DNA from: Anaerolineae bacterium | GTDB taxonomy: Bacteria; Chloroflexota; Anaerolineae; Promineifilales; Promineifilaceae | Reading direction: 5' to 3' | Assembly (NCBI GenBank): GCA_015486215.1 | Contig: WFSA01000009.1 | Location: 1 to 13,947, forward strand | DNA: 13,947 nucleotides | Notes under the pieces: model-generated | What the model was told of the DNA's origin: nothing | The model's input: the letters and a program-made list of their open reading frames with translations, nothing else | Databases searched by the model: none | Part shown: positions 2,415-13,709 of the stretch, in pieces | How positions within the stretch are numbered: position 1 is the first letter of the stretch | Layout of the letters: every line of letters starts with the position of its first letter | Made by a program: the position numbers and the translations under genes

Positions 2415-3851
2415 TTATTTAACGATAATGGGCAGATAGACCTCTCTTGCTTCTATGAAAAAGTGAGCCGGGCGGCTCCACGCGCCGGAGATCGTGTCAG
2501 ATTTGGCACGAATCCACCACGCGTACTCCCCTTTTGGCAGAGCGGTGGAGACGGTGTAGGAGCAGTTCTGGGTTGCGTTTTCGCAATGGGCGGCAACGGC
2601 CGTTACTTCACTTTGCCCGTAATCGTGTCCCCAATTGTACGTGCCATCGGAATTGACGGCGTATAGTTGGAATTCGTATTGAACGGCCGTTGTGATCGCC
2701 TCCCATGTCACGGCAAACGAGTCGCCATCCTGGGAAATATGCTTGCTGGGCGTAATCAACACCGAAGCGGGAAGCTCATTATCGTAATCGTCACAATGAT
2801 CTTTACGAGGATTGCCGCCTATATCGCAAGGGTAATCGGATGATTGGCCGGGGATAGGGCGAGGGTCATCAGTGGAAATGAGATCGTTTAATGCTCCCAT
2901 CTCGATCTGCTGGTCGCTGCCATCGCCTAAAGCGATGAGTCTGCCGCTTTCGCTGCCGTTAAATGTGTAATCAGCCAACGCATCAATCAAACGGAAAACG
3001 CCGTAATCATCCATAGCATCGAATGTACCATACCCGCCGTTACCAGTGGCAATCACTCTATGATCGGCGGCGTAATCATACCCGTTCGCGCTGCTGGGGC
3101 GCAGGATGACATACTCTTTTGCGGTATCGGCGATCGTGCCTACGCTCTCAAATTGGTCAATATAGGTGCGATAGTCGGTGCCACAATCATTTTCATAGGT
3201 TTGTACGATCATTTTGACATCGGATGGGTAATCGGCCAGCATCACATCGGTGCTGTCAAAATCGATCCATGGAGCCGAAAAGAAGAGGAACGCATTTTCG
3301 CCGTCTGTGCCGCCAAATCCATACTCCCGTATCATCGTATAGCTGACTGAGGTGAGCAGCCCGCCGCCAGAGGAGTGTCCGATCAGGCCGAATTTATTTT
3401 TATCAATGCGTGTTGGATAGAGGTCGGCCGTCCGCGTGAACACATTGGCAAGCTGCGAGCCAATGGTGGCGGTATTTGTGGTGTATTCGTCACAAACGGC
3501 CGTGTACCCCTTGCTGACAAGAAAGTAGAGAAGCTCATCATAAGAAGCACAAGGCATGTTCCAGCCGACAGCAAAGAATAGTACCGGCGCAGGTGACATT
3601 TGGTCACTGGGATAGTAGATGGTGACAGTATTGCTATCACCATCAACATCCATCGAGAAGGTGCTGGTCATGGTATCATGGCTGCCCCAACTGCCATACC
3701 CTGCGGCAATCGGCGCGATTGGCCCCTGATGGGGCTGCCTCAACGATATTAAGGCGAAGGTAAGTAATGTTGTCCCCATAATGAGGGGGAGGATGAGGAT
3801 AAAAATAAGTTTGGGGAAAGATTTGGAAAAAGACATTGTTATAATTTTCAT
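2415..3851 (-). CDS. Secreted or membrane-anchored alpha/beta-hydrolase. It is a GxSxG serine esterase/lipase resembling the PETase, chlorophyllase and dienelactone-hydrolase families, with a C-terminal FN3-like beta-sandwich domain.
   Basis: The N-terminal hydrophobic signal/anchor is KLIFILILPLIMGTTLLTFALISL. The nucleophile elbow is GLIGHSSGGG. The C-terminal ~100 aa (FAVTWEAITTAVQYEFQLYAVNSDGTYNWG...YTVSTALPKGEYAWWIRAKSD) resembles a fibronectin-III-type domain. The 478-aa ORF has no competing frame. Confidence 0.75.
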   Translation of the reverse strand: MKIITMSFSKSFPKLIFILILPLIMGTTLLTFALISLRQPHQGPIAPIAAGYGSWGSHDTMTSTFSMDVDGDSNTVTIYYPSDQMSPAPVLFFAVGWNMPCASYDELLYFLVSKGYTAVCDEYTTNTATIGSQLANVFTRTADLYPTRIDKNKFGLIGHSSGGGLLTSVSYTMIREYGFGGTDGENAFLFFSAPWIDFDSTDVMLADYPSDVKMIVQTYENDCGTDYRTYIDQFESVGTIADTAKEYVILRPSSANGYDYAADHRVIATGNGGYGTFDAMDDYGVFRLIDALADYTFNGSESGRLIALGDGSDQQIEMGALNDLISTDDPRPIPGQSSDYPCDIGGNPRKDHCDDYDNELPASVLITPSKHISQDGDSFAVTWEAITTAVQYEFQLYAVNSDGTYNWGHDYGQSEVTAVAAHCENATQNCSYTVSTALPKGEYAWWIRAKSDTISGAWSRPAHFFIEAREVYLPIIVK

Positions 3852-3870
3852 AGGATATTTAGTATCTTCT

Positions 3871-3982
3871 GTATCTTCTCAATAAATCGTGGACAAGACT
3901 TGACAAATTTCATCAGCACTTTATTTTACATGAGTACCATTAAGAAAATTTGTCAAGTCTCCCCCGAATACTGAGAAGATAC
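3871..3982 (+). mobile_element. Intact 112-bp type-1 MITE-like element (copy B) in the divergent promoter region between the hydrolase gene (-) and the sensor kinase gene (+).
   Basis: The TIR GTATCTTCTCAATA at 3871-3884 pairs with TATTCGG...TACTGAGAAGATAC ending at 3982. The internal 14-bp inverted repeat is GACTTGACAAATTT (3897-3910) and AAATTTGTCAAGTC (3946-3959), separated by a 35-bp spacer. A tandem partial duplicate GTATCTTCT sits immediately 5' at 3862-3870. It is the same element as 8468..8579 and 13503..13596. Confidence 0.75.
3900..3927 (+). promoter_or_regulatory. Sigma70-like promoter module inside MITE copy B. It is TTGACA-N16-TATTTT and reads toward the sensor kinase gene.
   Basis: A perfect -35 TTGACA at 3900-3905 is followed by a 16-nt spacer and TATTTT at 3922-3927, which keeps the conserved T1, A2 and T6 positions. 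The same module is present in copies C and D. In every copy it points at the adjacent gene. Confidence 0.35.
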
Positions 3983-4026: not shown

Positions 4027-4059
4027 AGGTGACAGGCACTTGCGAAGTGCCTGTCACCT
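4027..4059. repeat. Perfect 33-bp palindrome, copy 2 (centre GCG): AGGTGACAGGCACTT-GCG-AAGTGCCTGTCACCT.
   Basis: Arms 4027-4041 and 4045-4059 are exact reverse complements. Apart from the 3-nt centre it is identical to 1887..1919. It lies 45 bp downstream of MITE copy B and ~57 bp upstream of the kinase start codon. Confidence 0.8.
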
Positions 4060-4080
4060 TGAATTATTCGTATACCCCCC

Positions 4081-4116
4081 TCTACAAACGGCCGTCTTCA
4101 TGCTACAATGCTCCCA
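4081..4116 (+). promoter_or_regulatory. Candidate extended -10 promoter (TGcTACAAT at 4101-4109). Its predicted transcription start falls on the A of the kinase ATG, giving a leaderless mRNA.
   Basis: TG-n-TACAAT ends 7 nt before ATG 4116. The -35 region 4081-4086 (TCTACA) is weak. There is no SD before 4116. This is inference only. Confidence 0.25.
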
Positions 4117-6767
4117 TGATGCCCGCCCCCTATTTGAGCTATATTGATTTCAACCCCTACACATTCAACGCTGTCTCCCTATTTATCATCGGCTCACTCA
4201 GCGTTATCTATCTGCTGCGCCTCCAAAAGAAAACCGCCGCCTCGTGGTTCCTCATCACCAGCTTAGCCAGCTTCACGGCGGGCGTGATAGTCATGTTCTT
4301 CAGCGCCATCATCCTTTGGGGCGGTGTTTTGGATCTGTTCACGGACACCTTTGCCACCATCAGCATGGCCGCTCTGATCGGCTTTAACTACCATTATCCA
4401 CAACAAGTTACCTCCCGCGAGGCTGGTTTCGCACGTTTTTTTGCCGTCAGCATTAGCTTAACGGCCGTTATCATCAGCAGTTGGTATACGTGGCAAATTT
4501 ACAGAGTACATGCGTTTACAACGGCCGTTTCCCCCCTATTTTGGTTCCTGAATCCACTCATGTTTCTGGCCGCCCTGCTCGTCTCCATCCGCCGCGTCAT
4601 CATTATCGAACAACAAAAAACGGCAGCGGCAGGCTGGCATCATGCGTGGCTCGCCTTCTATCGGCCATCCCATCGTCAGGCGCGTTTATTGCGTAATTTC
4701 TCGTTAGCCTTATCGTTGGGATTGATACAAGGCATCGCCACTGGATTGAGCAGGACTGGACATATCTCGTCCCTGACGGCCGTTTACGCCATCAATCTCT
4801 CCCTGCTGCTGATGGTGGTTACCATCGTCTACGCCTCCTTTGAACTGACACAACAGCAGCCCGGTCTGATCATCCGTTTATTAGGACTTTCCCTGACGAC
4901 CTTATTACTGATTTTGGGCATTTTGGGCATATTTATGGTCAGTACCGCCATTGATTGGGTAAACATGCAAAACATCGCCTACACGAAAGTTGTGCAAAAA
5001 GTGGTTCGCGCTGACGAAACGGCCGCCTTGCCCGATGAAGTCGCCTACGTCGTCGCGTGGCCTAACGCGAAGACGGCGCAGTTGCTTTATGACAAACAGG
5101 GCACAATGGATATGCCATCCCTGATCGCCGAACAACAGCAAATAACGGCGAGAACGCTACCGCCCGCCGTCTGGATATCATTCATCCAGCCGCTCCTCCA
5201 CGCAGAAAACAGCACAACGGCCGTAAAATTCCGTTACGGATCAAACCCGCCCGGCTCTTGGCACCAATACGCCGCCTACACCTTTCGCCACGCTGGGATG
5301 GAGTACGAAGTCGGCTTCAAGTTGGCTGAGATGCGCCGCTTCCCCCGCGCCGTCAGCGTGGTTATGATTTGGGCGGTGATGTGCAGCACTCTCTTCATTC
5401 TCATCATTTTTCCGCTTTTTTTTAACGCTGATTTGATACGGCCATTAAACCGTTTGCTCGCTGGCGTGCAACAGGCGGATGACGGCGATCTAAACATCGC
5501 CATCCCTGTGGTACATGAAGATGAAGTCGGCTTTTTAACGGCCGCTTTCAACAAAATGGCCGCCTCATTACAAGATGAACTGACACAGCGACAACGCGCC
5601 CAAACAGAGTTACGCCATCTTGCCGATTCATTGGAGCGGCGCGTTGCCGCCCGTACCTACGAGTTGAGCGCATTATATGATGTTACCAAAGCGGCCAGCC
5701 AAGCACAAGATTTTCCCGCCTTGCTAACCGCCTCCCTCAACAGTGCCATCCGCGCCCTCAGCAGCGACGCTGGGTTTATTATTCTGACAGATGAAGAAGG
5801 GGTATCGCCGCACGCCACCTACCATCTAGCCACCCATCAAGGGATCGGCGATTGGCTGCCCCTTATTCAAAAAACGATTACCAACGGCGACTTTCTAGAA
5901 ATCATCAACCAACAAGACAAAGAACCCGTCCTCATCGCCAATACGTCCGCAGACCTACGTGCCCCGCATTTCATGCAGCTTATGCCGACGACGCTCCTCA
6001 TCGCGCCGTTATCGGCTGGAGAGCAGTTGTCGGGAGTGCTGATCGTCTACCGTGCTTTAGGACAAAGTTATAGCTTAAATGAGATTGCGCTGCTCATCTC
6101 AATCTCTGGACAACTGTCCATCGCCGCGCAAACAGACCGTCTGCGCCAACGCACCATCGTTTTGGAAGAGCGGCAGCGGCTCGCCCGCGACCTGCATGAT
6201 TCTGTCATCCAATCGCTTTATGGGCTGGCAACATTGACTGAAGTGGGAAAAATGCACGCCGCCGACGGAAATCTGGAGCCGATTGTGCCTATGTTCGCCA
6301 AAATCAGTAAGGCAGCACGGCAAGCGATTCGGGAAATGCGGCTGTTTATCCATCAATTGCGCCCGATGATTTTGGAACAGGAAGGGTTAGCCGACGCGCT
6401 GGAACTGCGGCTAACGGCCGTCGAAGGGCGTTCAGATGTGCAAGTGCGCCTGCAAGCCGATCCCGACCTGCGCCTGCCGCTGCCACTGGAAACCGCGCTC
6501 TATCAAATCGCGCAGGAAGCCCTCAACAACATTTTGCGTCACGCCCACGCGGAAACGATCATTATCACGCTGCACGGGCAAAACGGCCGTTTCATCCTAG
6601 AAATCCAAGACGACGGGCGCGGATTCGACCCGAATAAGGTTGACAACGGCCGTTTAGGGTTGAACAATATGCGGGCACGGGCGAAAGAGATTGGAGCTGA
6701 GTTTGCCATCACCTCCGCGCTCGGCATCGGAACCAAGATAAATATTGTGGTACATTATGACCCATAA
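4116..6767 (+). CDS. Sensor histidine kinase of the NarL-partner (HisKA_3) class. The N-terminal region has ~10 transmembrane helices and a ~130-aa extracytoplasmic loop, followed by HAMP, coiled-coil, GAF, HisKA_3 and HATPase_c domains.
   Basis: The H-box is ERQRLARDLHDSVIQSLYGL (HisKA_3 type). HAMP-like RPLNRLLAGVQQADDGDLNIAIP...GFLTAAFNKMAASLQDEL is present. A GAF-like segment (ALYDVTKAAS...GVLIVYRALGQ) follows. The ATPase has the N box QIAQEALNNILRHA and the G boxes DDGRGFD and GLGLNNMRARA. I prefer ATG 4116/4119 over the listed 4029, which lies inside the 33-bp palindrome. The stop codon at 6765-6767 overlaps the downstream regulator start. Confidence 0.85.
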   Translation: MMPAPYLSYIDFNPYTFNAVSLFIIGSLSVIYLLRLQKKTAASWFLITSLASFTAGVIVMFFSAIILWGGVLDLFTDTFATISMAALIGFNYHYPQQVTSREAGFARFFAVSISLTAVIISSWYTWQIYRVHAFTTAVSPLFWFLNPLMFLAALLVSIRRVIIIEQQKTAAAGWHHAWLAFYRPSHRQARLLRNFSLALSLGLIQGIATGLSRTGHISSLTAVYAINLSLLLMVVTIVYASFELTQQQPGLIIRLLGLSLTTLLLILGILGIFMVSTAIDWVNMQNIAYTKVVQKVVRADETAALPDEVAYVVAWPNAKTAQLLYDKQGTMDMPSLIAEQQQITARTLPPAVWISFIQPLLHAENSTTAVKFRYGSNPPGSWHQYAAYTFRHAGMEYEVGFKLAEMRRFPRAVSVVMIWAVMCSTLFILIIFPLFFNADLIRPLNRLLAGVQQADDGDLNIAIPVVHEDEVGFLTAAFNKMAASLQDELTQRQRAQTELRHLADSLERRVAARTYELSALYDVTKAASQAQDFPALLTASLNSAIRALSSDAGFIILTDEEGVSPHATYHLATHQGIGDWLPLIQKTITNGDFLEIINQQDKEPVLIANTSADLRAPHFMQLMPTTLLIAPLSAGEQLSGVLIVYRALGQSYSLNEIALLISISGQLSIAAQTDRLRQRTIVLEERQRLARDLHDSVIQSLYGLATLTEVGKMHAADGNLEPIVPMFAKISKAARQAIREMRLFIHQLRPMILEQEGLADALELRLTAVEGRSDVQVRLQADPDLRLPLPLETALYQIAQEALNNILRHAHAETIIITLHGQNGRFILEIQDDGRGFDPNKVDNGRLGLNNMRARAKEIGAEFAITSALGIGTKINIVVHYDP

Positions 6768-7434
6768 AACAGTCCCCTCCCCCTCCCCCACGCTGCGTAT
6801 TTTAATCGCTGACGACCACGCCATCGTCCGCGAAGGGCTGGAAGCGGTGATCGCCACCCAGCCAGATATGGCATTGGTGGGAACGGCCGTAAACGGAGTA
6901 GAAGCCGTCTCTCTAGCCGCACAGCTAAATCCCGACATGATCCTGATGGATTTGATGATGCCCCAGTTGGACGGATTAGCCGCTATTCAACAAATAACAA
7001 CCGCCAATCCAGCCGCCCGCATCCTCGTTCTCACCAGCTTCGCCGACGATGAACGGCTCTTTCCGGCCATCAAAGCGGGCGCGATGGGGTATCTGCTCAA
7101 AGACACCCTGCCCGCCGACCTGCTGCAAGCGATCCGCAATGTCGCTCAGGGAGAAACGTCCCTGCACCCGACCATCGCCCGCCGCATAATTCAAGAAATC
7201 CAACAGCCAGCCGCAAAAACGGCCGTTCCCGACCCCCTGACCGCCCGCGAAATGGAAACACTGCGCCTCATCGCTCGCGGCCTCACCAATAGGGAAATCG
7301 CCGCCGCGCTCACCATTCACCCCAAAACCGTCGCCAAATACGTCAGCACCATCCTGCAAAAACGGCACTTAGCCAACCGCACCCAAGCCGCCCTCTACGC
7401 ACTACGCGAAGGATTAGCCAGTTTAGACGAGTAA
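6757..7434 (+). CDS. NarL/FixJ-family response regulator with a REC receiver domain and a LuxR-type HTH.
   Basis: RILIADDHAIVREGL...MILMDLMMPQLDGL has the acidic pair and the phospho-acceptor Asp. LTAREMETLRLIARGLTNREIAAALTIHPKTVAKYVSTILQK is a LuxR/GerE HTH. ATG 6757 (MTHKTV...) overlaps the kinase stop, suggesting translational coupling. The alternative in-frame ATG 6745 gives MWYIMTHK. Confidence 0.85.
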   Translation: MTHKTVPSPSPTLRILIADDHAIVREGLEAVIATQPDMALVGTAVNGVEAVSLAAQLNPDMILMDLMMPQLDGLAAIQQITTANPAARILVLTSFADDERLFPAIKAGAMGYLLKDTLPADLLQAIRNVAQGETSLHPTIARRIIQEIQQPAAKTAVPDPLTAREMETLRLIARGLTNREIAAALTIHPKTVAKYVSTILQKRHLANRTQAALYALREGLASLDE

Positions 7435-7511
7435 TACACCGCTGCATACTATTTTCCTGATGGGATCAAAAGGTCAATTTCTTGAAGAAGTTGCCCTTTT
7501 TGGCGTGAGAA

Positions 7512-7553
7512 CTGGGTATAAATACCCACTCCAAAAGGCATCATTCTCCCCTA
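7512..7553 (+). promoter_or_regulatory. Conserved ~42-bp motif containing the palindrome GGGTAT-AA-ATACCC (7514-7527), followed by CACTCCAAAA...CATTCTCCCCT. This is copy 1 of 2.
   Basis: The second copy at 10185..10226 is CTGGGTAAAAATACCCACTCAAAA...TCATTCTCCCCTGTC. The palindromic core is conserved as 5-bp arms GGGTA/TACCC around 4 central A/T bases. It lies 78 bp downstream of the regulator stop and 134 bp upstream of the LamG gene ATG. Confidence 0.5.
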
Positions 7554-7653
7554 TCCATCGGGTATCGCCCCTTGTTACCATATAATGCATCCATTTATCG
7601 TACGGCAAAGTATGTGGGCAACGGCCGTAGTATCATTACAAGGAGCAGTAAGA

Positions 7654-8457
7654 ATGAAGAAAAAATGGTCAAACTCATTTTTATTATGCATATCATTAGT
7701 ACTACTCACTGGATCAAGTCTCATCAACGGGGAGTATTTCACCGCCAACATCGCCTTAGTCAACGCCAATGAGTCTGCCCAGCAAGGAGCGGTTGCATAC
7801 TGGAAGTGCGACGATGGATCGGGAACCGTCGCCAGCGACAGTTCTGGCAACGACCACGATGGAACTCTGGTCAGCACGACATGGACATCCGATGTCCCTC
7901 CCACCAGTTATGACAACCCCTCTGCCCTGCAATTTGATGGAGCAGACGATTATGTATTTGTGCCGGATGCTTCCGAATTACGCATCTCAAATAACTTTAC
8001 GTTGGCATTTTGGTTCAAATCAGGTTCGACAACGCAATCAGGTAAATATCTGTTGGCTCGGAATAGTACTGCCGCCAGCGATCAAATCGCCGTCATCTAT
8101 GAATACACAGAAGATGTGATTGAATTTTACGTGCAGGGATACAGTGGAGAGAATCCACGTTCTGGATCACAACTGCCTTTGGCAGACACAGAGTGGCATC
8201 ATATAGCGTATACCTACGATGGCACAACTTGGGCTGGGTATGTAGACGGTGTGCAAAAATTTGCAGTTTCCCGATCGTTTCTCTTGCCCACAGATGCTTT
8301 GGACGGCTGGTATATAGGTGCTGCCAGCACCATCACATCAGGACGTGTAAATGGCCGTATGGATGATGTGCGTATCTACCTCCATGCGCTCTCACCCATA
8401 GAAATCCAGATACTGACTGCATCCGACGCTGTTTACCTGCCTCTTGTCCTAAAATAG
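7654..8457 (+). CDS. Secreted LamG_3 / concanavalin-A-like lectin-fold protein (267 aa) with an N-terminal signal peptide.
   Basis: AAGGAG lies 8 nt upstream of ATG 7654, so I prefer this start over the listed 7585. The signal peptide is MKKKWSNSFLLCISLVLLTGSS. LamG_3 hallmarks are ALQFDGADDYVFVP, FTLAFWFK, WHHIAYTYDGTTWAGYVDG and MDDVRIYLHALSPIEI. Confidence 0.75.
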   Translation: MKKKWSNSFLLCISLVLLTGSSLINGEYFTANIALVNANESAQQGAVAYWKCDDGSGTVASDSSGNDHDGTLVSTTWTSDVPPTSYDNPSALQFDGADDYVFVPDASELRISNNFTLAFWFKSGSTTQSGKYLLARNSTAASDQIAVIYEYTEDVIEFYVQGYSGENPRSGSQLPLADTEWHHIAYTYDGTTWAGYVDGVQKFAVSRSFLLPTDALDGWYIGAASTITSGRVNGRMDDVRIYLHALSPIEIQILTASDAVYLPLVLK

Positions 8458-8467
8458 AAAATATGCC

Positions 8468-8579
8468 GTATCTTCTCAATAAATCGTGGACAAGAGTTGA
8501 CAAATTTCATCAGCACTTTATTTTACACGAGTATCATTAGGAAAATTTGTCAACTCTCCCCAGAATACTGAGAAGATAC
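8468..8579 (+). mobile_element. Intact 112-bp type-1 MITE-like element (copy C) between the LamG gene and the lipoprotein gene.
   Basis: The TIRs are GTATCTTCTCAATA (8468-8481) and TACTGAGAAGATAC (8566-8579). The internal inverted-repeat arms here are GAGTTGACAAATTT and AAATTTGTCAACTC. Relative to copies B and D this is a compensatory C>G / G>C pair. The flanks AAATATGCC (left) and AATACGCCC (right) look like a degenerate 8-bp target-site duplication. Confidence 0.75.
8497..8524 (+). promoter_or_regulatory. TTGACA-N16-TATTTT promoter module inside MITE copy C, reading toward the lipoprotein gene.
   Basis: TTGACA is at 8497-8502 and TATTTT at 8519-8524. This is the same module as in copies B and D. 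The lipoprotein ATG is 123 bp downstream and has a strong SD. Confidence 0.35.
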
Positions 8580-8646
8580 AATACGCCCATTAAAAAATTC
8601 GGGACTCGTTTCCCTCTAGCTCTAGCTATCAATAAAGGAGAAAACC

Positions 8647-10053
8647 ATGACTACAAGAAAAACTGTCTATATTTTTATATTTACCCTTCTTGCACTATCT
8701 ATCGCCGCTTGTAAATCAGAACAAGAAACGGACGATACGGCCGTTGCCGTTTCAGTTGCCCTGACACAAACAGCAGTTGTGCCGACAGCAGCAACGGCCG
8801 TTGCCCCAACCGTCGCCCCAGCCATAATTTCAGTTGAGCCGACAGAGCCGACAAAGCCGACAGAAGAAACGGCCGTGCCGACAGAAGCAGCCGAATCCCC
8901 AGCCGAAGAACTCGGTTTCATCACTGGCAGGGCGCATTTAATGGCTCCGCCAACACCTTCTTTAACCATCTACGCCGTCAATATCGCAACTGGCGAATGG
9001 GTTTCTGTAGACACGGCCGAAGCGGATGGCGAAGCTGCCTATACGCTGGAACTACCGTCAGGCTCCTATCATGTATTTGCTTCCTACGGCTTGGGCTACT
9101 CATCTGACAATAAAGGGTTAACTCCTGTCGTTGTCAACGCAGGGCAAACAACAACAGATATTACACTCTCTCCCCCTTCCCCATCCGATTGCGGCCCGAT
9201 GTTCGGCATTCCCGCCTCTCCAGATGGAGCGTATGCGGAAATTCCCGGCCCCTCAGAAGAATGTTCGTCATCTTCCGCCGCCCCAGCCCCAGCCGAAACC
9301 GAAGCAACGCGCATCCAATTCGCGCCCGGAGATGATTCTGCCCAGATTTTTGGCGACATCCTCCCTCATGGAGTTGACCATTACCTGATAAGCGCAGCGG
9401 CCGGGCAGGAAATGACAGTGAATGTTGATGTATTTGAAGACAACCCGATAACCCTCGCTATCGCAGGCGCAGATGGAACAATCCTCAATCAATACGATAC
9501 AGATACCACCACATGGACGGGCATACTTCCCTCTACACAAGAGTATTACATTGATATTCTCTCCAGATACGATCAAACGAGTATTGATTATGCGTTGGTA
9601 GTAATGATTCGCACGGTAGAAGAGACGAATAGCAGCTATCAGCCGCCCTCTCCATCAATCTGTCAAATTATTCAAGAGACAGCAAACGAGGCTGTCCCAG
9701 CCACCTTTACGCTGGAGTCCAGCGCACCTTTTATAGACCCCTCATCTGGAGAATCAGGGCTGGGATGCAGCTTGACGACAACTGGGAACGGGGTTGATTT
9801 TTCCAGCCCTAACGATGTAATAACCAGCTTGGTACACGCCTTTATCGGATGGGAGGAACAAGCGGCATATCAGGCGGATGGGCCGACTGGATCGGCAACG
9901 GGAATGACCCGCGATATGGGCTTGCTGTTAATTAACGCAGAGTGGGAAGCGGCACCAGAAGTACAATGTCCCTCAGATCAACCCATATCAGCTTGCAGCA
10001 TCAATCCAGAACAAAAACTATACACCATTCATATACAAGTCGCGCAAAAGTAA
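8647..10053 (+). CDS. Lipoprotein with a Pro/Thr/Ala-rich linker, a CarboxypepD_reg-like beta-sandwich domain and a PPC (pre-peptidase C-terminal)-like domain. Its function is unknown.
   Basis: AAGGAG lies 8 nt upstream of ATG 8647. The signal peptide carries a lipobox (LLALSIAAC, Cys22). The linker is low-complexity PT/A-rich (VAPTVAPAIISVEPTEPTKPTEE). ITGRAHLM...IYAVNIATGEWVSVDTAEADGEAAYTLELPSGSYHVF resembles a carboxypeptidase regulatory-like fold. ATRIQFAPGDDSAQIFGDILPHGVDHYLISAAAGQEMTVNV...YYIDILS resembles a PPC domain. Confidence 0.8.
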   Translation: MTTRKTVYIFIFTLLALSIAACKSEQETDDTAVAVSVALTQTAVVPTAATAVAPTVAPAIISVEPTEPTKPTEETAVPTEAAESPAEELGFITGRAHLMAPPTPSLTIYAVNIATGEWVSVDTAEADGEAAYTLELPSGSYHVFASYGLGYSSDNKGLTPVVVNAGQTTTDITLSPPSPSDCGPMFGIPASPDGAYAEIPGPSEECSSSSAAPAPAETEATRIQFAPGDDSAQIFGDILPHGVDHYLISAAAGQEMTVNVDVFEDNPITLAIAGADGTILNQYDTDTTTWTGILPSTQEYYIDILSRYDQTSIDYALVVMIRTVEETNSSYQPPSPSICQIIQETANEAVPATFTLESSAPFIDPSSGESGLGCSLTTTGNGVDFSSPNDVITSLVHAFIGWEEQAAYQADGPTGSATGMTRDMGLLLINAEWEAAPEVQCPSDQPISACSINPEQKLYTIHIQVAQK

Positions 10054-10115: not shown

Positions 10116-10176
10116 AAATTGGACACTGATCACACTGATTTCACTGATTTTTATCTGTGCAATCAGTGTCCAATTT
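10116..10176. promoter_or_regulatory. 15-bp inverted repeat (AAATTGGACACTGAT / ATCAGTGTCCAATTT) enclosing three direct CACTGAT repeats at 9-bp spacing. It is iteron-like and possibly a terminator.
   Basis: The arms are at 10116-10130 and 10162-10176. CACTGAT occurs at 10124, 10133 and 10142, with a reverse-complement copy ATCAGTG at 10162-10168. It sits 63 bp after the lipoprotein stop and ~85 bp before the receiver ORF. The RNA stem would end in AAUUU/UUUUG. Confidence 0.45.
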
Positions 10177-10184
10177 TGCAAGAG

Positions 10185-10226
10185 CTGGGTAAAAATACCC
10201 ACTCAAAACCCACTCATTCTCCCCTG
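10185..10226 (+). promoter_or_regulatory. Copy 2 of the GGGTA-N4-TACCC motif (GGGTAAAAATACCC at 10187-10200), 68 bp upstream of the ATG of the receiver ORF.
   Basis: See 7512..7553. A possible -10 TATATC lies at 10240-10245. Confidence 0.5.
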
Positions 10227-10260
10227 TCAAAGAGAGGTGTATATCTGCTAATTTTGTAGT

Positions 10261-10632
10261 ATGAACACAAAACAGATCACCATCCTCATTATCGCACCAG
10301 CAGGACGTATGGCCGACACGCTTTCTGTGTTATTGAAATCCAATACTCAGATCACGCTGCTCGGCCAAATTGCCGATCCAGATGTCGGCCTGCGTCTGAT
10401 TGTTGAACGCCAGCCCGATGCTGTGATCATAGACGCAAATTTACCCGACAATGCCGTTTGGCCGCTTTTATCACAATTAAAAACGGCCGTTCCCCACACC
10501 CGCCGCTTCGTTCTGATCCACTCATCCCAACAAAGAAAACAGGTCAAAACCACAGGTGCTGACACTATATCCGCATCTGAATGTAATGCTAAAAAATTGT
10601 TTTTAGGAATGGGAATTTTATCTTCTCAATGA
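10261..10632 (+). CDS. Atypical receiver (REC)-like single-domain protein, 123 aa. It may be a MITE-truncated response-regulator remnant or pseudo-receiver.
   Basis: ITILIIAPAGRMADTLSVLL...PDAVIIDANLPD has a REC-like fold signature and a conserved Asp at the DANLP position, but the N-terminal acidic pair (DD) is replaced by AP. The last 4 codons and the TGA (10618-10632) lie inside a decayed MITE TIR (TTATCTTCTCAATGA). I see no SD. Confidence 0.45.
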   Translation: MNTKQITILIIAPAGRMADTLSVLLKSNTQITLLGQIADPDVGLRLIVERQPDAVIIDANLPDNAVWPLLSQLKTAVPHTRRFVLIHSSQQRKQVKTTGADTISASECNAKKLFLGMGILSSQ

Positions 10633-10696
10633 AAGGGCAAAAGAGCTGATAGATTTCATCAAAGCCTCTCAATTTACACGAGTACCACAAAAAAAC
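10618..10696 (+). mobile_element. Decayed type-1 MITE relic (copy E), keeping the left TIR and part of the spacer.
   Basis: TATCTTCTCAAT...GATTTCATCA...CAATTTACACGAGTACCAC resembles GTATCTTCTCAAT...AATTTCATCA...TTATTTTACACGAGTATCAT of the intact element. The right half is missing and replaced by the 118-bp inverted-repeat element at 10697. Confidence 0.4.
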
Positions 10697-10814
10697 CTAG
10701 TTCTAGCGGATTTTGTTGCTGCCTGATTTGATGCCATTTTAAAGCAATACTCGCGTCATTTTTGGACGAAATTTACTATCAAAAACTATCAGCAACAAGA
10801 AACGCTAGAACCAG
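10697..10814. repeat. 118-bp element with ~25-bp imperfect terminal inverted repeats (CTAGTTCTAGCGGATTTTGTTGCTG / CAGCAACAAGAAACGCTAGAACCAG). It is a possible second MITE type inserted into the relic E spacer.
   Basis: The arms 10697-10721 and 10790-10814 are reverse complements at ~21 of 25 positions. The insertion point in relic E, just after CACGAGTA..CA, corresponds to the type-2 insertion point in copy A. Confidence 0.35.
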
Positions 10815-10985
10815 ATAAATTACTCCTTTATCAATACTGTTTTTGTACAGCGTACAAGGATATTATCCGCAGATTTCACAGATCGACGCAGATTAAAAAA
10901 GGTTAAAAATCTGCGCCAATCTGCGGATCGTTCTTCACCCAATTCCAAACACAGAATTGATCGGCTGGAAAACAGCCGTTCTCCT

Positions 10986-13338: not shown

Positions 13339-13502
13339 AAAAAAAACTCCTCTAGCTTACAGATCATATTCGTAGGCTTAACGAATATATTTGACTGTCA
13401 TTCCTGCCTTCGCTGAGCCCGCCCTCGTCGAGATGGGGGAATGACAAACCGTTAAGTTTACAACAATGCTTACAGATAGATGCACGAATAGAAGCCGCTT
13501 TG

Positions 13503-13709
13503 GTATCTTCTTAGTATTCTGGGGAGACTTGACAAATTTTCCTAATGATACTCGTATAAAATAAAGTGCTGATGAAATTTGTCAAGTCTTGTCCATAATA
13601 CTTCGGGGTGAGTACAACAAATCAAGAAAGGAATAAATTGCATCAGTCGAGTCAACCTGCTCTTTTCCAAATCTGCTGTACTCATGTCCCCAGTTTTTTG
13701 AGAAGATAC
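13503..13709 (-). mobile_element. Chimeric MITE-like element (copy D) in reverse orientation, flanked by a perfect 9-bp target-site duplication GCCGCTTTG. It is a type-1 body (13503-13596) fused to a type-2 3' portion (13597-13709).
   Basis: The left TIR is GTATCTTCTTAGTATT and the right end is TTTTTTGAGAAGATAC. The 9-bp direct repeats are at 13494-13502 and 13710-13718. The internal inverted repeat is GACTTGACAAATTT / AAATTTGTCAAGTC. The segment 13597-13709 matches the type-2 element 1690-1814 in the same way (AATACTTCGGGGTGAGTACAAC...CCCCAGTTTTTTGAGAAGATAC). Confidence 0.7.
13558..13585 (-). promoter_or_regulatory. TTGACA-N16-TATTTT promoter module of MITE copy D on the minus strand, reading toward the NfeD-like/flotillin operon.
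   Basis: On the minus strand, TTGACA is at 13585-13580 and TATTTT at 13563-13558. The predicted leader to ATG 13338 is ~210 nt and contains a 9-bp-stem hairpin (13396-13404 / 13438-13446). Confidence 0.3.

Follow-up and report, generated by a model that had tools for sequence, protein, structure and literature searches.

Control of neighbouring genes by a NarL/LuxR-family response regulator that binds, as a dimer, a palindrome upstream of them is a textbook mechanism, and three site families have been defined with which a new site of this kind can be compared. In Escherichia coli the NarL 7-2-7 site is TACCCCTAAAGGGGTA (TACCCCT-AA-AGGGGTA), with TAC at its outer ends (PMC4549865). The DevR/DosR box of Mycobacterium tuberculosis is a palindrome with GGGACT halves and GGG-N8-CCC geometry (PMC3177182), and the LiaR/VraR operators of Firmicutes follow T(X)4C(X)4G(X)4A, with adjoining secondary sites (PMC4482077). 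DosR K182, NarL K188 and LiaR K177 are equivalent DNA-contacting lysines, and in LiaR-DNA structures a further residue, Lys174, hydrogen-bonds guanines (PMC4482077).

The window considered here, that is, the whole stretch of DNA that was analysed, is one complete MAG contig of 13,947 bp. It encodes a two-component system with a NarL/LuxR-family regulator, downstream of which a 16-bp palindrome occurs twice (sites 1 and 2 below). Our reading of the sequence, to which we give an even chance of being right, is that the two copies belong to a duplicated promoter-upstream module and that the palindrome is a candidate operator of the adjacent regulator.

Results

Genes of the window

The gene context given in a preliminary description of this DNA (a kinase, a regulator, a LamG protein, a lipoprotein and a receiver-only ORF) was borne out by Pfam, which also placed a GH5 enzyme at 20-1339 and, in the same survey, an unknown 478-aa protein and an SPFH protein, both on the minus strand. 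The sensor histidine kinase (4029..6767, plus strand) has the domain order HAMP-GAF-HisKA_3-HATPase_c, preceded by a large N-terminal region without a Pfam match, and its ~40 orthologues all come from Anaerolineae/Chloroflexota metagenomes. The response regulator (6745..7434, plus strand; REC and GerE domains) probably starts at 6757, which gives the 225-aa form found on the contig. Its nearest solved relatives are VraR/LiaR (E 2e-46), followed by NarL and DevR, more than 7,600 regulators match it at E below 1e-60, and it is the only protein encoded in the window with a Pfam DNA-binding domain, hence the candidate binder. No LiaF-like partner is present beside the two-component system.

Downstream, all on the plus strand, are a secreted Laminin_G_3 (LamG) protein (7654..8457), a predicted 468-aa lipoprotein with the lipobox IAAC and no Pfam match (8647..10053, called from its lipoprotein signal), which is a conserved neighbour of the two-component system, and a receiver-only protein with a weak Pfam match (10261..10632). 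The last of these keeps the phospho-acceptor Asp (D58); it has no N-terminal acidic pair, with IIAPAGR in place of IADD, and the orthologues do not consistently retain the conserved Lys, so that it looks like a degenerate receiver. Searches for identical copies of the LamG and receiver-only proteins gave no match.

Anatomy of the palindrome and its flank

The palindrome had been noticed as GGGTA-N4-TACCC with a conserved flank, present twice and upstream of two genes. Both the number and the placement held, and the palindrome proved longer, with 6-4-6 arms (TGGGTA-N4-TACCCA) in both copies, exactly two of which occur in the window (7513-7528 and 10186-10201). A pattern search of the whole window matched GGGTAWWWWTACCC exactly only at 7514-7527 and 10187-10200, and allowing up to two mismatches added a single match, at 3070. 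Base composition by itself predicts about 0.001 exact matches in 13.9 kb, and none of 200 shuffled windows reached three or more matches at up to two mismatches; two exact copies are thus far above chance and count in favour of the promoter-module reading.

The repeat search showed that each palindrome is part of a 48-nt direct repeat (7508-7555 and 10181-10228) with 39/48 positions (81%) identical. Over 7512-7553 and 10185-10226, the span for which some 40 of 45 shared positions had been claimed, the actual ungapped identity is lower, 34/42, and six of the eight mismatches are concentrated in one 10-nt stretch. When the copies are compared by block, CTGGGTAWAAATACCCACTC (block A), which includes the palindrome, is identical at 19/20 positions, the next 10 nt at 4/10 and TCATTCTCCCCT (block B) at 12/12. 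In the 20 nt beyond the 48-nt repeat the similarity of the two sites is about random, and after this diverged segment TGnTAnnnT, an extended -10, stands in the same register in both. Block B starts 20.5 nt and the extended -10 lies 52.5 nt from the palindrome centre at either site. The two copies are therefore more than a plain repeat, as they share three conserved blocks (palindrome, TCATTCTCCCCT and extended -10) at identical spacing with diverged DNA in between, a pattern that points to purifying selection on a promoter with upstream sites and not to neutral decay.

At site 1 the palindrome is TGGGTATAAATACCCA (7513..7528, centre 7520.5), a perfect 16-mer which also admits a 7-2-7 reading (TGGGTAT-AA-ATACCCA). 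It is followed on the plus strand by block B (7541..7552) and by the predicted extended -10 TGTTACCAT (7573..7581, read from the sequence), which a perfect TATAAT (7581-7586) abuts. Site 2 consists of the palindrome TGGGTAAAAATACCCA (10186..10201, centre 10193.5), block B (10214..10225, plus strand) and the predicted extended -10 TGCTAATTT (10246..10254, plus strand), which ends 6 nt short of the receiver-only ATG at 10261.

Predicted promoter features

In all seven loci compared, the -10 hexamer ends 6-7 nt before the start codon of the receiver-only gene, which fixes the position of the promoter. The TGn extension is found in every locus compared (the distant L031, L026, L027 and L153 included) except L030, which has TAAAAT without TG. 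A sigma-70 scan returned no -35/-10 pair at site 1 or site 2, no -35 hexamer was recognisable at either, and there is no Shine-Dalgarno sequence in the short gap between the site 2 -10 and the ATG. With the -10 only 6 nt before the ATG and no ribosome-binding sequence in the gap, a leaderless mRNA from 10261 is predicted, and the receiver-only transcripts of all seven loci appear to lack a leader. By analogy with site 2, we predict the start at site 1 at about 7588. These predicted starts would put both palindrome centres at about -67.5 and both second blocks at about -41.5, and the lack of a -35 suggests that the promoter needs an activator.

Conservation in close relatives

The sister strain L025 (GCA_054008415.1), whose kinase and regulator are 93% and 98% identical to those of the window, has both copies. 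Its site 1 is identical to that of the window and its site 2 differs at two positions, neither of them in the palindrome or block B. Around site 1 (~7495-7581) the two strains differ at 1 position in 87 nt, as against 6 in the preceding 60 nt, and the predicted -10 is kept in L025 up to the breakpoint of an indel at 7581. In L030 (kinase 73%, regulator 85% identical) the receiver-only gene follows the regulator, and TAGGTAAAAATACCCA begins at the regulator stop codon, at the same distance from the receiver-only start as in the window, with TCTTTTTACCCT in the register of block B. An ungapped comparison of this spacer with that of the window gave 15/16 identical positions in the palindrome, 16/24 in the middle stretch and 16/35 in the proximal stretch, the palindrome thus being the best-conserved part of the regulator-to-receiver spacer. 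Finally, L152 (regulator 79% identical) has TGGGTATTTTTAACC five nt past the regulator stop codon, at the end of its contig. The copy before the receiver-only gene is therefore conserved in place in L025, L030 and, in part, L152, and this retention at an orthologous position identifies site 2 as the ancestral copy on sequence grounds, and site 1 as the later one.

Gene order, proposed targets and the probable origin of site 1

The preliminary description had proposed that the kinase and regulator control the LamG protein, the lipoprotein and the receiver-only ORF. The LamG part of this wiring did not survive comparison with L025, which keeps site 1 and has no LamG gene, so that its site 1 faces the lipoprotein gene. 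Where the window has the LamG gene and a 119-nt repeat (7582-8594), L025 has ~210 nt with a different hairpin repeat (4552-4760), and the left breakpoint of this indel falls directly behind the -10 predicted for site 1, at the TATAAT of the window. As judged from these sequences, the conserved targets of the candidate operator are the receiver-only and lipoprotein genes, LamG being strain-variable cargo.

The receiver-only gene directly follows the regulator gene in L026, L027, L030, L031 and L154, and in L153 a small called ORF on the opposite strand lies between them; in the regulator/receiver-only spacer of L153 we also observed a ~200-nt palindromic insert with terminal inverted repeats (..ACGCAATACCGCAAAA.., 10655-10875). 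In L154, which belongs to the same species as L031, a 68%-identical lipoprotein homologue lies a few bases after the receiver-only gene, and given this short gap it is probably co-transcribed from the receiver-only promoter. In the lineage of the window the lipoprotein gene precedes the receiver-only gene, and a separate copy of the promoter module stands before each of them. The lipoprotein gene is thus linked to the two-component system in two different gene orders, and its orthologue in L155/L156 is away from the system, with no such motif upstream, which speaks against the promoter-module reading. The move of the lipoprotein gene to a place between the regulator and receiver-only genes probably gave rise to site 1, and since the lipoprotein and receiver-only genes would be co-transcribed in the L154 lineage, duplication of the module would have held both under one control. 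The simplest reading is that the duplication preserved this joint control. Remnants of a tandem duplication, in the form of pseudo-copies of the receiver-only or lipoprotein genes, were looked for and none was found.

Distant orthologues

In L031/L154, L026, L027 and L153, with regulators 70-75% and kinases 45-56% identical to those of the window, the order kinase, regulator, receiver-only gene is kept and the GGGTA-type palindrome is not. The expected co-conservation of motif and regulator therefore holds within the clade whose regulators are 79-98% identical, and fails among orthologues at 70-75%. The latter have a two-box layout upstream of the same conserved -10 with a different sequence, mostly of the AAAAC-N3-5-GTTTT type. 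The distal box, at about -70 to -80, is represented by AAAACGAAGTTTT and AAAACCAAGTTTT in L031 and by AAAACGCGAAGTTTT in L153, and is degenerate in L026 and L027; the proximal box, at about -45, is AGTTT(T)CTTG-like. Within ~60 kb of these loci, AAAAC-N2-6-GTTTT is confined to the regulator/receiver-only spacer. L031 (3378-3436, equivalent to 5525-5583 of L154) contains three tandem boxes of the form CCCCAAAA(A)C-NAA-GTTT(T)C at 23-bp spacing, located at about -93, -70 and -47 upstream of the receiver-only promoter and followed by AGGTATACC at about -35. The GGTA/TACC pairs in the spacers of L031 (AGGTATACC) and L026 (TTACC-N5-GGTAA) were considered and rejected as the same site, since both spacing and position differ. 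As for autoregulation, neither palindrome type is convincing upstream of the kinase genes, where L027 has one TACC-TG-GGTA.

The recognition helix of the regulator is almost invariant across orthologues (TVAKYVS). The residue preceding TVA is Lys (KTVA) in the window, L025, L030 and L152 and Asn (NTVA) in L031, L026, L027 and L153, and across these eight loci the palindrome type follows it. This position aligns with LiaR Lys174, and the pairing of Lys with a GGG-containing palindrome is suggestive, with the limit that the covariation is a single phylogenetic split and so counts as one event only.

Dispersal of the motif

According to the preliminary description, a motif dispersed over many unrelated loci, like another repeat family, would speak against an operator. 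We looked for such dispersal in the window, in the related loci and in genome, metagenome and viral collections, the host genome being outside the collections, and found no dispersed copies among the matches listed. The window and the related loci contained orthologous copies only (two each in the window and L025, a single one in L030). The scan for TGGGTAWWWWTACCCACTC in 596 Gb of representative genomes, a collection that holds neither the host genome nor the sister strain L025, gave 24 scattered matches, each in another unrelated genome, and one match per genome fits chance. Of the 120 metagenome matches listed for RGGTAWAAATACCCASTC, none had the TCATTCTCCCC flank or a related gene context, and none of the four viral matches, three of which are copies of one sequence, had the conserved flank or a related gene. 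Taken together, these searches of the window, the related loci and collections without the host genome argue against a widespread repeat, and the distribution inside the host genome may be wider.

Several matches were examined and set aside. The metagenome loci L042, L089 and L109 at first resembled L030 and turned out to be non-coding and rich in repeated GGGGTAA/TTACCCC words, with no related genes; positions 6000-6700 of L089 (metagenome Ga0058701), for instance, have no ORFs and are packed with GGGGTAAAAATACCC, TTTTTACCGGGGGTAA and CCCTAGGGAA, so that the pattern is matched by composition. The matches in L144/L097 and L114 lie near unrelated NarL-type or LamG genes and their flanks show no similarity.

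Other repeats on the contig

The contig carries several repeats of other kinds. The octamer palindrome ACGGCCGT, mostly in the form AACGGCCGTT, occurs 27 times in 13.9 kb (0.24 expected; ~1.9 per kb), both in and between genes, at sites that include 152, 752, 2337, 4461, 7621, 10483 and 13732. Its density is 1.4-2.0 per kb in L025, L030 and L152, with 0-1 copies each in L031, L154, L026, L027, L153, L155 and L156. It is thus a clade-specific, highly iterated octamer reminiscent of cyanobacterial HIP1. A family of ~119-nt intergenic repeats, 92-96% identical, is found at 3864-3982, 8461-8579 and 13502-13595 (inverted), with partial copies at 1815-1857 and 1639-1671; it has an internal inverted repeat (GAGTTGACAAATTT...AAATTTGTCAACTC) containing a TTGACA hexamer and resembles a MITE or REP element. 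A near-perfect palindrome of 33 nt, AGGTGACAGGCACTTG..CAAGTGCCTGTCACCT, occurs twice (1887-1919 and 4027-4059), one copy being just upstream of the kinase gene, and the equivalent place in L025 has none. Just upstream of site 2 there is a hairpin element with 24-nt arms (AAATTGGACACTGAT..., 10116-10176). In L025 (~6285-6350) it is present as the reverse complement with a 10-nt insert, an indication that it was inverted or re-inserted, and a related copy lies upstream of the L025 kinase gene.

Discussion

A candidate operator and its possible binders

From the observed anatomy, shared register, conservation and gene order, we infer the start sites, the activation and the identity of the binder as follows. 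In the module, a 16-bp palindromic operator would be centred at about -67.5, the second block would follow at about -41.5, and the extended -10 would stand without a -35. The phosphorylated LiaR/VraR-like NarL-family regulator encoded just upstream would bind the palindrome as a dimer, may occupy the proximal block as well, and would then recruit RNA polymerase. Transcription from site 2 would yield a leaderless mRNA encoding the receiver-only protein, whose role is probably that of a phosphate sink or feedback partner, and site 1 would drive the lipoprotein gene, together with the LamG gene in the window strain. That the adjacent LiaR/VraR-like regulator is the protein that binds the palindrome is plausible, and we hold it about equally probable that it is and that it is not.

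The main rival to this explanation is binding by another regulator, in which case the module would be real and would be read by a different dimeric regulator encoded elsewhere, the adjacent one acting at other sites. The near-invariance of the adjacent regulator's helix while the palindrome changes between clades speaks for such a binder, and so does the kinase-regulator operon, which has no copy of the palindrome upstream, an absence that counts against the adjacent regulator. However, the element stays in the regulator/receiver-only spacer of four close-clade genomes, the window encodes no second DNA-binding protein, and the K or N residue of the helix tracks the palindrome type, so that we regard a different binder as unlikely, if well worth keeping in mind. 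The two conserved blocks with a variable spacer between them, and the absence of a canonical sigma-70 -35/-10 pair at both sites, could also be accommodated by a promoter for an alternative (ECF-type) sigma factor, with the right half of the palindrome as -35 and the CATTCT of block B as -10. This we consider improbable, since TACCCA and CATTCT are merely 13 nt apart, the dyad symmetry of block A would be left without a role, and the -10, which in every orthologue keeps its distance of 6-7 nt from the start codon, already explains the promoter.

Other explanations would deny the repeat a role as a promoter element. The stretch between the two copies holds just those genes that separate the regulator gene from the receiver-only gene, an arrangement absent in other lineages, and the region differs between strains, as might be expected of a functionless leftover from a segmental rearrangement that inserted the lipoprotein and LamG genes there. 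Neutral decay would nevertheless be even, and here the mismatches cluster between blocks that are 97-100% identical, the -10 register is kept and no part of the spacer is better conserved relative to L030 than the ancestral copy, which leaves this origin a low probability. An att-like recombination site, or a member of a small family of mobile repeats such as others on the contig, is in our view about as improbable: although a 48-nt direct repeat flanks a variable gene block on a contig full of repeat families and of a highly iterated octamer, all copies (two in the window, two in L025, one in L030) sit at orthologous promoter positions, the genome matches fit chance, neither the viral matches nor the metagenome matches listed have the conserved flank, no integrase or transposase gene is nearby, and the neighbouring hairpin repeat, where found elsewhere, is not accompanied by the palindrome. 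The lowest probability goes to an RNA hairpin, whether as terminator or attenuator of the regulator gene or as a processing/stability element. Both sites can form a 6-bp stem with a 4-nt loop (-8.7 kcal/mol at site 1 and -11.3 kcal/mol at site 2), the z-score of site 2 is -2.5, and in L030 the palindrome comes directly after the regulator stop codon. On the other hand, the z-score of site 1 is just -0.9, the hairpin is weak and has a U tract on neither strand, as an intrinsic terminator would require, Rfam gave no match, the terminator scan reported nothing at the sites, and the stems are almost invariant and so offer no compensatory changes to score.

Specificity of the regulator and significance

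Under the promoter-module reading with the adjacent regulator as binder, the behaviour of the distant orthologues calls for an explanation, since a near-invariant helix combined with a palindrome restricted to the close clade implies either a shift in specificity or a palindrome that is not the site of this regulator. For the former, we put forward only tentatively, as a rather unlikely scenario, that regulator and operator changed specificity together, the Lys clade using GGGTA-N4-TACCC and the Asn clade AAAAC-N3-5-GTTTT. With similar reserve, both clades would then have in common a layout in which the distal box lies at about -70 and the proximal box at about -45, ahead of an extended -10 and a receiver-only gene whose mRNA is leaderless. 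If true, this would be a natural case of co-evolution between operator and recognition helix inside one widespread Anaerolineae two-component family.

If the promoter-module reading is confirmed, it would provide the first operator for a two-component system of a kind that is very common in uncultured Anaerolineae, together with a minimal regulon made up of the receiver-only partner, the lipoprotein and the strain-variable LamG protein, and would illustrate how duplication of a promoter module keeps a gene under the same control after rearrangement.

Comparison with known operator families

Among the described systems, LiaR/VraR is the closest to the window regulator by sequence, closer than DevR. 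The two-block layout seen here recalls the arrangement of a primary site and an adjoining secondary one ahead of LiaR/VraR target operons, and since LiaR systems control cell-envelope genes, a lipoprotein and a secreted LamG protein would be fitting cargo. Compared by eye over 7509-7531, however, AACTGGGTATAAATACCCACTCC does not match T(X)4C(X)4G(X)4A in any register. Two of the three base-contacting residues of LiaR differ in the window regulator (K177 to A and T178 to K): it has Ala at the position of LiaR K177, NarL K188 and DosR K182 and Lys one residue later (helix KTVAKYVS), and all 10 of the orthologues aligned have this Ala. The window system also differs in having no LiaF-like partner and in its kinase, with a large Pfam-less N-terminal region, HAMP and GAF.

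The DevR/DosR system likewise pairs a NarL-family regulator and a 16-20-bp dyad with kinases that, like the window kinase, carry GAF and HisKA_3. The GGG-N8-CCC geometry of its box is found at both sites (7514-7516/7525-7527 and 10187-10189/10198-10200), and DevR promoters have two or more boxes upstream of the promoter. The half-site here, though, is GGGTAT or GGGTAA and not GGGACT, that is, the inner triplet is TAT/TAA and not ACT, and the two blocks, 26 bp apart, do not form an obvious helical-phase tandem.

With NarL sites the palindrome shares its total length of 16 bp, the regulator family and, at site 1, the possible 7-2-7 reading. The likeness to the NarL heptamer that had been proposed stands as far as the letters are concerned, the right half (TACCCAC) and the left half on the other strand (TACCCAG) fitting six of the seven positions of TACYYMT (TACYYM), and breaks down in the orientation, which is the reverse of that in the 7-2-7 site (PMC4549865). 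TAC lies beside the centre here (..GGGTA-N4-TACCC..) and at the outer ends in NarL, so that a NarL-like dimer could not read these sites in the same manner. With the LiaR consensus, the NarL orientation and the DevR inner triplet all mismatched, the candidate operator, as its sequence stands, is NarL/LuxR-family-like and yet belongs to none of the three defined site families.
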